From positions 1-8,171 of the IMG/VR virus record IMGVR_UViG_2778261420_000020: DNA of 8,171 nucleotides. One strand, 5' to 3'. The stretch comes from a virus. Its lineage: Duplodnaviria > Heunggongvirae > Uroviricota > Caudoviricetes. The notes under the pieces were generated by a model that was not told the origin of the DNA, did no database searches, and was given only the letters and a program-made list of their open reading frames with translations. This document shows, in pieces, positions 1-5,095 of the stretch (within the stretch, counting starts at the first letter, position 1; every line of letters starts with the position of its first letter). Both the position numbers and the translations under genes were made by a program.

Positions 1-744
1 TCAGATTCCCTGGTGAGTAAGAATTTTACTTTCTGAACTCCTCTGAGAGTATTGACTTGGAGAAACACCAAAATAACGTCTAAATACATAAGTAAAGTAT
101 GAGACACTGGCATAACCACAGACCTTAGCTACTTTACTAATAGGATAACAACGAGTGCTGAGTAAATATTCAGCCATTTGCATCCTCTCATCAAGTATGA
201 TCTTACTGAATGATATCCCCTCTTCTTTCAATTTCCTCTTTAGTAAACTTTCGCTGAGATATAATCTTGATGATATATCCTTAAGACGCCATGGTGCAGA
301 TAAATCCGTATGAATAATCGTTTTAACTTTAGCCCCTGTGCTTTTCAAACATCCAAACAGAAATACTCCAAATTGTTTTTCAGAAGAAAATGCAGAGAGA
401 CATGTAAAAGCAATAGACTCATCAAAAATTTCTATGTATTCAGCACAGTGATTAGCCCAACTAATTAATCCTTTAATTAAACTGAAGTCAGCAAAGTTTA
501 TTTTTAAATAAGATGGATATTCCCTACAATCAGAAATATCCCTTAAGTTATTAGCTTTCAAATAGCGACTAATAAACTCAGCGCCAAAATCCGCCACTAT
601 CACTCTTTCAGGATATGTCAGAAAAAAATCTCTAGAGCTAGAGTCGACAAGTACAGATGAACCTCTCTCCAGAAACACACTCTCTTTTCCGAAATAAACA
701 TCAAAGGACTCCAAAATCAATATAACTGAACATGTGGTTGCCAT
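1..744 (-). CDS. AraC/XylS-family transcriptional regulator (complete, 247 aa; stop codon is the first three bases of the window)
   Basis: The C-terminal ~100 aa carry the two helix-turn-helix units typical of AraC/XylS regulators (e.g. ...SRLYLSESLLKRKLKEEGISFSKIILDERMQMAEYLL... and ...ISKVAKVCGYASVSYFTYVFRRYFGVSPSQY). ATG start at 742..744. The gene is AT-rich and lies outside the tRNA-fragment boundary, so it is flank rather than prophage. Confidence 0.85.
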   Translation of the reverse strand: MATTCSVILILESFDVYFGKESVFLERGSSVLVDSSSRDFFLTYPERVIVADFGAEFISRYLKANNLRDISDCREYPSYLKINFADFSLIKGLISWANHCAEYIEIFDESIAFTCLSAFSSEKQFGVFLFGCLKSTGAKVKTIIHTDLSAPWRLKDISSRLYLSESLLKRKLKEEGISFSKIILDERMQMAEYLLSTRCYPISKVAKVCGYASVSYFTYVFRRYFGVSPSQYSQRSSESKILTHQGI

Positions 745-1328
745 ATCATCCGCCCAATTTAACTGAAACCAGGATGAAGTATATGCATATAAAGTTCACT
801 TTGCCAAACTTCAGTATAAAAAACCACATAAAAAATAGGGTGTGATAAAAAATACCGTAACAATAAAGCAAAGGATTATAAATTCCGTTACAGTTACAAA
901 TGATACTCAAGAAACAATTCCTTAGGAAAAACTTATTTACAGCCAATAAGTAAGACACTTATATGATATCAAGTTTTCATAAAACATAACTAGGCTAAAT
1001 AGCTGCGCCTAATACCGCTACACTTTTGCCAGCCCATGTTTGCCTCCGGGTATTGACCCCTTCTCTACGCAACTTCAGTTCCCACCACCAACTTTGCGGC
1101 AGCTTTGTAGGATAAATGTCTAAAAGAATAATGGTAACCGATAAGAAAACGACTGAATAACTGCAGATTTTCGCTCAAAACCTTCCTGTCAGATCCATAG
1201 CGAATCAAGTGCTGAATGTCACAGTATCGAACAGAAAACAGTGACGATCTAACCCTTCAAGAATATTCTACGATTGTTCTGTTTAGGAAAAGCAAGGCGG
1301 GAAGTCGGGAGATAAGTCATTGATAAAG

Positions 1329-1394
1329 TGGCGGAGAGAGGGGGATTTGAACCCCCGGTAGAGTTGCCCCTACTCCGGTTTTCGAGACCGGTCC
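1329..1394 (-). other. Partial tRNA-Ser(CGA) 3' segment (anticodon stem to CCA end), a putative prophage attachment-site repeat; not a functional tRNA
   Basis: The reverse complement reads GACCGGTCTCGAAAACCGGAGTAGGGGCAACTCTACCGGGGGTTCAAATCCCCCTCTCTCCGCCA: anticodon loop with CGA, long variable arm, T-arm GGGGGTTCAAATCCCCC, acceptor 3' strand and CCA. It matches enterobacterial serU as I recall it. The acceptor 5' strand (GGAGAGA...) and D-arm are absent upstream, so this is only the 3' part. Confidence 0.7.
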
Positions 1395-1474
1395 AATCAT
1401 CAAACGAAACATAAAATTAATTCACATTATGAGGAAAAGTATCTTTTTTGTACTATGTAAATTCAAAGACTTAG

Positions 1475-2344
<870 letters not shown>

Positions 2345-2404
2345 GTCTTTAAGTGATAAGCATAAACCGCAGCACGATCTTCTTGCATACGACGTGCTAC
2401 GGTT

Positions 2405-2815
2405 TCATTTATCTCCGACCGGAAACTTCTTATACAGTGTCGATATACCAACATCATAGATGATCGCCACCTTCTGGCGAGGAACGCCTGATGCAATTAA
2501 TCGTCCGGCCTGCTCCCATTGTTCTGGTGTAAGTTTGGGGCGACGTCCACCAATTCATCCCTGTGCGCGAGCTGCTTCCAGTCCAGCTTTTGTTCGTTCA
2601 ACAATCAGTTCACGCTCCATTTCAGCCAGGGCACCCATCACATGAAAAAAAAAGCGCCCCATTGGGGTACTGGTATCAATTGAATCCGTCAGACTACGAA
2701 AGTTGATGCCTCGTTCGCGCAACTCCTCCACCAGCACGACAAGATGCCACATACTGCGTCCCAGTCGGTCCAGTTTCCAGACCACCAGCGTGTCACCTGC
2801 CGATAATGTCCTATT
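2405..2815 (-). pseudogene. Serine DNA invertase remnant (Pin/Gin/Hin/Cin family): N-terminal ~47 codons missing, including the catalytic-serine region, plus an in-frame TGA at 2555..2557
   Basis: The translation RTLSAGDTLVVWKLDRLGRSM...GINFRSLTDSIDTSTPMGRFFFHVMGALAEMERELIVERTKAGLEAARAQG, then a stop, then IGGRRPKLTPEQWEQAGRLIASGVPRQKVAIIYDVGISTLYKKFPVGDK, is the recognisable Din-family invertase core and C-terminal HTH. The expected N-terminus (...GYVRVSTxxQ...) is not found in any frame. The TGA sits where these invertases have Arg (QGRIGG). Confidence 0.85.
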
Positions 2816-2872
2816 GAAATCAGTGTTAACCTCTACAACCAATTTGCTGGTATTGCCTGGCCTGAAGGTAAA

Positions 2873-3163
2873 ATGCTTGGTGCAGATAGCACTGGACTGC
2901 CCGCTTGGGTCGATGCGCCGCCTCCAACGCATGAAGAGCTTATTGAAATTACTCAATCAGAAAGACAGCTACTAATTAACCAGGCCAACGAATACATGAA
3001 CAGTAAACAATGGCCCGGTAAAGCCGCTATTGGTCGTCTGAAAGGTGACGAACTGGCGCAATATAATTTGTGGCTGGATTATCTGGACGCACTGGAACTG
3101 GTTGATACTTCCGGTGCGCCAGATATTGAATGGCCTACGCCTCCGGCAGTTCAGGCCAGATGA
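2873..3163 (+). pseudogene. Tail-fibre assembly protein, alternative copy (Tfa'/U'-like), 5'-truncated remnant; C-terminal ~96 codons (frame is open back to 2807)
   Basis: The C-terminus ...LWLDYLDALELVDTSGAPDIEWPTPPA matches the conserved Tfa C-terminal motif also present in the intact minus-strand tfa (...ALDYIDALTATDTSTAPDVIWPELPEA). It converges on and overlaps tfa by 29 nt. The remnant is too short to be a full Tfa and abuts the truncated invertase. Confidence 0.6.
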
Positions 3164-3737
3164 CATCCGGCGCGGTGCTGGTATCTGTTGCCGTCAACGC
3201 GTCAATATAATCCAGCGCAACGTTAAGCCGGGTGGTTTCTGCCTGCGTCAGCTTCCGCCCGGCCTGCAATTTCAACTGAATCAGACTAATGGAAACCATT
3301 GCAGCATCAATCAGTGACTGACGCTGTGCTTCTGCCGCGTCTACTGCGGCGCTATGCTGTGCCTCGGTATCTGTCACCCATTTCTCACCATCCCATTTAT
3401 CGTATGGAGATAAAGGGGCGATAGTGGTTGTATTTTCAGGGTAATCACCCGGAGCTGTGATTTCTTTTGATTCTCCTGTTTCAGTGCTATAGACCGTTTC
3501 ACCACGATGGTCTGGCACATATCCCCATGAGTTAAAATCTACAGAACGGCAGATAACATAACCCTCCCTATGTATACCAGGTGCATCCAGGCAGGAATAT
3601 GCCGGGATACCAACACCAACGGCAAGATATTCACTTGAAGTGGAAATATATTCCCGAGTTTCACCATCATAGTTATAAACAGTAATATCCCCTGCCTTCG
3701 TAGCAATAAACTCGCTATTTAATACAGCGTTATCCAT
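3135..3737 (-). CDS. Tail-fibre assembly protein (Tfa / Mu U-like)
   Basis: 200 aa with the conserved C-terminal motif (...LNVALDYIDALTATDTSTAPDVIWP...). It lies immediately downstream of the tail-fibre gene, and its start codon overlaps the fibre stop codon (TAATG). Confidence 0.85.
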   Translation of the reverse strand: MDNAVLNSEFIATKAGDITVYNYDGETREYISTSSEYLAVGVGIPAYSCLDAPGIHREGYVICRSVDFNSWGYVPDHRGETVYSTETGESKEITAPGDYPENTTTIAPLSPYDKWDGEKWVTDTEAQHSAAVDAAEAQRQSLIDAAMVSISLIQLKLQAGRKLTQAETTRLNVALDYIDALTATDTSTAPDVIWPELPEA

Positions 3738-4507
3738 TATGCAGCCCTCACAATGTAGTTAAATGCAACGTTCACCGGGCGAGTTTCATTGGCGGTATTT
3801 GCCACCCTTGACATATCGAAATCAAATGTTGTGACACCATGCCCTCCACTACCTACGCCTGTAACCGCTGTTAATCCAGTAGTCAGATAGTTATTACCGT
3901 TATGACGAAATGGACCATTGGTAACTAAATCTTTAAAAAGCTGAATTTTCCCTATTGAACCAGTGACGTTTTGCATTGCATGCTCCTGTGAAGCCAATAG
4001 AATCCTTCCGGGGTCAATGCCTCTCCCGTCATCCCAGCCACGAATAAACTCACCGCGTAAATCAGGCAATTTATTTGTCGGGTAAGCCTTTGCCAGTTCC
4101 GGGTATTCTTCAGCAGAAAATGCCGCACCGTTGCATTTCAGCCAGCCTGTTGGCGGAGTGGCGGAAGGCCACGGAACAGGCACACCAACGGGTAATGCCG
4201 AACCTTCTCCCAAACCAAGGTTTTCGAGAGCCGTTTTCACCGTGCCATCCGATTTGATATCGCCAAACGGATTCTTGCGGCTTAACAGCAGCGCATGAAG
4301 CGCGGTAAGCAACTGGTCGTTTCGCCCCTTCTCCAGGCTGGCACCGGATGCCTCCACCACGCCACAAAGCTCTTCCTGCAACATGTCAAAGTAGTCATCA
4401 TCAAGATCGGTGGCAGGCGTGCCAGTCTGGGGGTTACCACGGGTAAAACCGTTCTTACCCGCGCCGAACTTATCCTTCTGCGCGGTTTTCGTGTCTATGC
4501 GATGCAT
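3737..4507 (-). CDS. Tail-fibre protein (short side tail fibre with a phage tail-collar domain)
   Basis: A tail-collar-like motif block is present (...[45 protein letters not shown]...). The N-terminal region is typical of inversion-type fibre genes and contains a crossover-like site. Gene order is baseplate, then fibre, then tfa. Confidence 0.85.
4205..4230. other. Candidate invertase crossover site (hix/gix/pix-like 26-bp site) embedded in the tail-fibre coding sequence
   Basis: TTCTCCCAAACCAAGGTTTTCGAGAG contains the conserved AAACC-NN-GGTTT core of Din-family crossover sites (about 20/26 identical to hixL as I remember it). It encodes LENLGLGE at residues 94-101 of the fibre, the expected constant/variable junction. 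Confidence 0.5.
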
Positions 4508-4510
4508 GGA

Positions 4511-5095
4511 TTACTCCGGATATTTAAAAATTACGTAGGTATGCGACGGGCAGAGTTTGTTAAGCACACACTCGACAACGGTGTCACCCCAGATACGCAG
4601 TGCGGAATCACAGGGATCGCCACATGTCATCCAGGTGGTGTTGGTGGCGGCTGGCATGTTGACCTGCCAGTAATACCGCCATTCCGGCGCATTCACCGCG
4701 TCAGTACAGGCCGATGAGCAGGTGAAGGTGCTTTTATCGTATCGCGTGATGGTGGCGTCTTGTCTGCCCAGGGCAGCAAGCTGTGCAAGGTAAAAATCCT
4801 CATTGATGCCGCCCGCCAGGTTAACCTTCGCATCCAGCCGTTGCTGACGCTGGCGAAGGGTCTGCGTTCCCGCAGGAATGCATTCATCCGGCAGGCCGCA
4901 CAGACGCTCCCAGCGGTTTATCAGTTCGGTGGTGGTGCGCGGATCCAGCTCCCGCATCAGGGCATCCGCACGCTGATGAACGCGGGTTAATGACGGTGCC
5001 GCACCGGCAATCGCCGGATCGCTGGCTGACCACGCCGGACCGGGCGGCAACAGTGCCGATAACAGGCGGATGTAATCATCGTTTGTCACGTCCAT
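4511..5095 (-). CDS. Phage tail protein, Mu gp48-like / DUF2313 (YmfQ-like)
   Basis: 194 aa with the N-terminal motif ...[12 protein letters not shown]... characteristic of this family as I recall it. It sits between the baseplate-J-like gene and the tail fibre and overlaps the upstream gene by 10 nt. Confidence 0.75.

Follow-up and report, generated by a model that had tools for sequence, protein, structure and literature searches.

The 26-mer at positions 4205–4230 of the window, by which we mean the whole 8,171-nucleotide stretch analysed here, is very probably pixL, the crossover site on the fibre-gene side of a P-type invertible segment that has since decayed. The prophage that hosts it combines a baseplate module resembling that of Mu with a fibre region resembling that of e14. 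As such, the finding is already known: it is the pixL of the e14-type P-inversion system, here in a decayed, orientation-locked copy.

The site TTCTCCCAAACCAAGGTTTTCGAGAG reads as TTCTCCCAAACC AA GGTTTTCGAGAG, and its half-sites, compared after reverse complementation of one of them, are identical at 9 of 12 positions; the symmetry is therefore imperfect. The inner half-site (4205–4216) faces the formerly invertible segment and the outer one (4219–4230) lies in the constant part of the fibre gene. Pix and other Din-family site sequences have been tabulated (PMC3241671), and we used the twelve published sites of that table as references. The window site is identical to the pixL of the cryptic prophage e14 at 26 of 26 bases, synonymous positions included, and agrees with pixR at 21, with hixL, cixL and cixR at 20 each and with gixL at 18 of 26 positions. 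Its core AA is the same as in the pix, hix and cix sites. The identical 26-mer is present in e14 stfP (ycfK) of K-12 MG1655 and in O157:H7. The first-pass annotation, which had proposed a Din-family crossover site here and suggested an alignment with the gix, hix, cix and pix sites, is thus borne out, the match to pixL standing far above a background of 17/26. Both the 12-2-12 architecture and the match to experimentally defined sites place the sequence in the Din family; recombination has been observed at the identical site in relatives (strains 141 and N8B7-2, and e14).

Could such a sequence be a chance palindrome? The bare 12-base core AAACCNNGGTTT is not enriched in the window, where 3 occurrences with 2 mismatches were found against 3.85 expected, and it is thus the full 26-base sequence that carries the case for the site. 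When up to 3 mismatches are tolerated, the 26-mer has a single occurrence in the window and was absent from all 200 shuffles. Together with the complete identity to a published site, this refutes a chance origin, to which we assign practically no probability.

The site is spanned by codons 94–101 (LENLGLGE) of the minus-strand fibre ORF, as had been noted before and as a codon count from the translation confirmed, with the central AA falling within codon L97. This raises the alternative that the sequence was kept solely because it codes for LGLGE, a conserved motif on the border of a fibre domain, and that it resembles a crossover site only incidentally. The motif is common to fibres of unrelated phages at the protein level, and protein constraint alone would keep much of a coding site. 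Against this stand the agreement at all 26 bases, including synonymous positions, the invertase and second chaperone remnants, which are placed as expected for a decayed P segment, and the inversion of near-identical relatives exactly at this sequence. The motif-only explanation is effectively refuted and retains very little probability. The coordinates of the site and of the features around it are collected in Table 1.

Table 1. Features of the fibre region, in window coordinates.
Feature	Position	Strand	Basis or remark
Pin invertase remnant (pin), codons 50–184	2405–2812	–	Translated and aligned with K-12 PinE and O157:H7 Pin
Deletion junction 2812/2813	2811–2814		Shared dinucleotide CT at 2811–2812; O157:H7 alignment and three-way junction comparison
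Second tail-fibre assembly gene remnant (tfa'), codon 28 to stop	2813–3163	+	100% identical to full-length tfa of E. coli C11
Tail-fibre assembly gene, TfaE-like, 200 aa	3135–3737	–	Paired with the expressed fibre tip
Tail-fibre gene, 256 aa	3737–4507	–	ORF; Pfam Collar domain on identical protein
Variable C-terminal fibre tip	3769–4013	–	Gaps between BLAST pieces; unmatched in compared phages and O157:H7
Conserved fibre module directly inside the site	4014–4223	–	Per-locus BLAST and base-level comparison
16-bp inverted-repeat arm CCTTCTCCCAAACCAA	4203–4218		Repeat flanking the e14 P segment per PMC12529663, read in the window
pixL-type 26-bp crossover site	4205–4230		Two 12-bp half-sites, core AA at 4217–4218

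Inversion at the site is seen in relatives. An O157:H7-type E. coli prophage shares 97–99% DNA identity with the window over most of its length. Strains of this type, for example N8B7-2 and 141, have the gene order and the pixL of the window. Unlike the window, they keep pinE, pixR, the alternative fibre end and a full second chaperone gene, and both orientations of the segment occur among them. In the cattle isolates 141 (locus L017) and N8B7-2 (locus L001) the flanks are 100% identical and the sole difference is a 1,903-bp inversion (L017 2118–4020 versus L001 6020–7922), whose joints lie in the two sites and overlap the arm CCTTCTCCCAAACCAA. For e14, inversion of the 1,797-bp P segment between CCTTCTCCCAAACCAA and its complement is experimentally established (Kirigo et al., PMC12529663). 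An inverted partner stands beside the invertase gene in the intact relatives, namely O157:H7 (25/26 to pixR), K-12 e14 (26/26) and a Salmonella P2-like phage (26/26).

Of the components that a functional P-type segment has besides pixL, the second site, the invertase gene and the second fibre end with its chaperone gene are missing or incomplete in the window. Searching both strands for a second site, with the twelve published Din sites as references and a threshold of 16/26, returned 17/26 as the best other 26-mer in the window, a level also reached in unrelated DNA and hence background. The inner arm TTCTCCCAAACCAA has no second copy in the window even with up to 3 mismatches, and a partner site was also not found in the 12.8 kb of locus L004. 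The window accordingly holds no inverted second site on the same molecule. The adjoining serine invertase gene is represented by codons 50–184 only, with a TGA stop at codon 135 (2555–2557), a substitution R71W and the catalytic Ser9 region missing. Both parts of the earlier description of the site as an orphan, the absent partner and the lack of a functional invertase, hold on these data. In place of two opposed fibre C-termini, each with its chaperone gene, one fibre end and its chaperone gene are intact (3135–4216) and the second set is reduced to chaperone codons 28 to stop.

The pin remnant and pinE of e14 share 93% DNA identity, and a Resolvase domain is called on a 76-aa product in identical loci. 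A 133-aa ORF (2555–2956) was considered as a short invertase and rejected; it is a read-through across the deletion junction. The tfa' remnant (96 aa) shares 29 bp with the end of the intact tfa gene, an overlap also present in e14.

Why the site is an orphan can be read from the alignment to the O157:H7 strain N8B7-2. Window positions 1–2812 and 2893–3768 align to L001 3001–5810 and 6592–7467, respectively, and L001 5811–6591 is without counterpart in the window. This block carries pin codons 1–49, the beginning of the second assembly gene, the alternative fibre C-terminus and, in inverted orientation, a site that agrees with pixR at 25/26 bases (L001 6013–6038). The 80 window bases unmatched to L001 (2813–2892) are 100% identical to another assembly-gene allele, that of E. 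coli C11, from codon 28 onward; these bases are therefore not foreign and the junction lies at 2812/2813. Here pin codon 50 is fused to tfa' codon 28 with 2 bp of microhomology. What was deleted, about 0.7 kb, comprises pin codons 1–49, including the catalytic serine, pixR, the alternative fibre C-terminus and tfa' codons 1–27. The site is orphaned because this deletion took away pixR. We considered whether the invertase itself had made the deletion and rejected this, since neither side of the junction is pix-like and the joint has only the 2-bp microhomology. The evidence points to an illegitimate deletion, not an invertase product.

In an intact system, a Pin/Din serine invertase pairs pixL with the inverted pixR next to pin, cuts at the central AA and flips a segment of about 1.9 kb. 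Each flip joins the constant fibre N-terminus (codons 1–97) to one of two C-terminal parts, both of which have an assembly chaperone of their own. Within this family an invertase dimer occupies each site and acts with a Fis-bound enhancer on supercoiled DNA, cutting at the central dinucleotide and rotating (PMC3798978). According to the same source, the Hin enhancer is located about 100 bp away from hixL, the wild-type enzyme shows no activity in the absence of the Fis/enhancer element, and intramolecular inversion is the exclusive outcome that the invertasome allows (PMC3798978). The pin stretch equivalent to the Hin enhancer position falls in the deleted L001 5811–6499, so that the enhancer in the 5' end of pin was probably also removed. 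With these parts gone in the deletion of about 0.7 kb, the segment is locked with a StfP-type N-terminus joined to a StfE-type C-terminus. A single site is left in the window; inversion is therefore impossible and the fibre locked, and we infer that the site is inactive at present. It persists as a relic because the same bases code for the fibre protein. Its continued conservation says nothing about function, given that deletion-bearing copies are 99.7–100% identical overall and that the site is coding. For the prophage, the tail fibre is fixed on one receptor-binding end, and a decay step of a well-known phase-variation switch is dated; the significance is small beyond correct annotation.

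Only a look-up by exact protein identity, which returned 13 contigs, recovered the deleted form. Among the matches listed (8 places) are three NCBI draft assemblies, four ENA metagenome assemblies and one Logan assembly of a public sequencing run, and contig NORX01000037.1 (assembly GCA_002521845.1) contains the window sequence with 100% identity. A scan of one genome per bacterial species gave no match to the exact deletion junction (35 bases), and among 5,426 complete E. coli genomes there was none with an unbroken match across it. In one gut metagenome contig (L007) the deleted P region is present and, past the point corresponding to window position 1051, cytochrome-b561-like (PF01292) and ZinT-family genes replace the AraC-family gene. 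This end of the prophage is thus not invariably joined to the DNA that lies left of about position 1051.

The gene content around the site is that of a tail-fibre region downstream of a baseplate module. A run of Mu-type baseplate genes on the minus strand, from about 8126 down to 4511, encodes homologues of gp44, gp45, gp46, gp47/J and gp48/YmfQ. In the fibre gene that follows, the constant N-terminal part comprises codons 1–97 (4217–4507) and the variable C-terminal part codons 98–256. At the DNA level, the conserved module directly inside the site is 92–96% identical to fibre genes from P2-like phages, to HK97 stf and to e14 stfE. Among 60 sampled rows, E. coli WEM25 (H131) alone covered the fibre tip over the stretch queried, 3900–4013. 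The TfaE-like assembly gene is 91% identical in DNA to tfaE of e14 and O157:H7, and Caudo_TAP domains are found on the identical protein. Beyond pin lie a LEM-3-like GIY-YIG gene (1520–2344, plus strand) and an AraC-family regulator gene (1–744, minus strand), separated by about 775 bases without a long ORF; e14 has mcrA there.

The position of the site coincides with a sharp mosaic border. Twenty-five phage records were listed in which the match runs from the assembly genes up to window positions 4218–4229 and no further. For E. coli we took 60 evenly spaced records from the 3,058 that match 3900–4530. In this sample 49 of 60 matches end within 4198–4229 (23 start at 4198–4219 and 26 stop at 4218–4229) and the remaining 11 cross the site without a break. 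Per-locus BLAST and base-by-base comparison show that K-12 stfP matches the window from 4203 rightward. K-12 stfE, HK97 stf and P2-like fibres of Escherichia, Salmonella and Klebsiella match from about 4014–4029 to 4221–4229 and diverge in the outer half-site. At the protein level, phage homologues form two sets, one matching residues 1 to about 109 and the other starting at about 90–106 and running to the end; only 2 of 792 records cover 80% of the protein, and homologues with only the N-terminal or only the C-terminal part both exist. Two further mosaic borders were seen in the fibre gene, at about 4014–4029 and 3769–3790, bounding the conserved module and the variable tip.

The suggestion that the site marks the junction between the constant and the exchangeable part of the fibre is upheld by these phage and E. 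coli genome matches, which start or stop inside it, and the predicted loss of similarity near residue 100 of fibre homologues proved to be a mosaic break at base resolution. It had further been proposed that the receptor-binding part could be swapped here by recombination with related phages. The sharpness of the borders lends good support to exchange having taken place at the site in the past. Future site-specific exchange from the orphan site is weakly founded, since the wild-type enzymes of this class reportedly work within one molecule only and require a Fis-bound enhancer (PMC3798978).

These data bear on two more active roles for the site. One is that it is still a substrate, paired by trans-acting invertases of other prophages with a distant pix-like site, which would give large inversions or cassette capture. 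PinE, PinQ and PinR have each been reported to invert the e14 P segment, PinQ doing so from another prophage (PMC12529663). E. coli genomes commonly carry pix-type sites, with as many as 9 matching places in a single genome, and mosaic borders fall inside the site at base resolution even in HK97, which has no invertase. However, a partner was found neither in the window nor in the 12.8 kb of L004, the 5' end of the local pin gene, where the enhancer would be expected, is deleted, and wild-type Hin is reported to be inactive without the Fis/enhancer element and to invert exclusively within one molecule (PMC3798978). We regard continued activity as highly improbable. The other is that the orphan pixL could serve as a docking point, at which a co-resident phage or prophage with an active Din invertase and its own pix-type sites could, in rare cases, deliver a new receptor-binding cassette by site-specific recombination at the AA core. 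We consider this improbable; if true, it would explain the base-resolution cassette borders inside the site in P2-like, Mu-like and lambdoid phages. A decayed pixL remains our preferred reading. Sandmeier and Arber are said to have described, for Min and Cin, invertase crossover sites as borders of horizontally exchanged fibre cassettes. The population data presented here are a clean base-level illustration of this old idea, which is already in the literature.

The closest known system is the e14 P-inversion system (pixL, pixR and pinE, with stfP/tfaP and stfE/tfaE). The two share the identical site at the same position in an orthologous fibre gene, the location of this gene downstream of a ymfQ/gp48 homologue and a TfaE-type chaperone gene. 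Whereas e14 has pixR, the alternative fibre end and the 5' end of pin, the window is without all three and no inversion is possible. Compared with the K-12 e14 reference, the window is in the opposite orientation, with the StfP N-terminus joined to a StfE-type C-terminus, a combination termed 'StfP2' (PMC12529663). It also differs from e14 in the fibre tip, in its intact baseplate genes, whereas e14 jayE is annotated as a pseudogene, and in the AraC-family and GIY-YIG genes at the place of mcrA.

Like the window, HK97 has one pix-like site in its stf gene, located at the same point of the protein and lacking both a partner and an invertase. This site, TTCTCCCAAACCAAGGTTTGTGCGAG (L012 3638–3663), agrees with pixL at 23 of 26 bases, and DNA homology to the window stops inside it. 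In the HK97 stretch examined we found neither a partner site nor an invertase gene, none being left beside the fibre genes. Unlike the host element of the window, HK97 is a lambdoid siphovirus with a different fibre N-terminus. Given its single pix-like site, orphan sites of this kind are therefore not unusual. The phage vB_EcoM-689R6 (L015 4001–6282) has the same baseplate genes and a fibre gene, annotated with only 171 codons, whose similarity to the window extends across pixL as far as about 4026. Next to it come an mcrA-like gene and one for a DNA invertase, and only one pix arm was found in the stretch examined.

The 12-2-12 architecture of the window site is shared with the Mu G segment (gix/Gin), the P1 C segment (cix/Cin), the Salmonella H segment (hix/Hin) and the p15B Min system. 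The half-site sequences of these systems differ from those of the window and, in contrast to it, the systems are intact. Hin, unlike the P-type invertases, switches a flagellin promoter and not a fibre end. Mu and P1 likewise have the site between the constant and the variable parts of the fibre.
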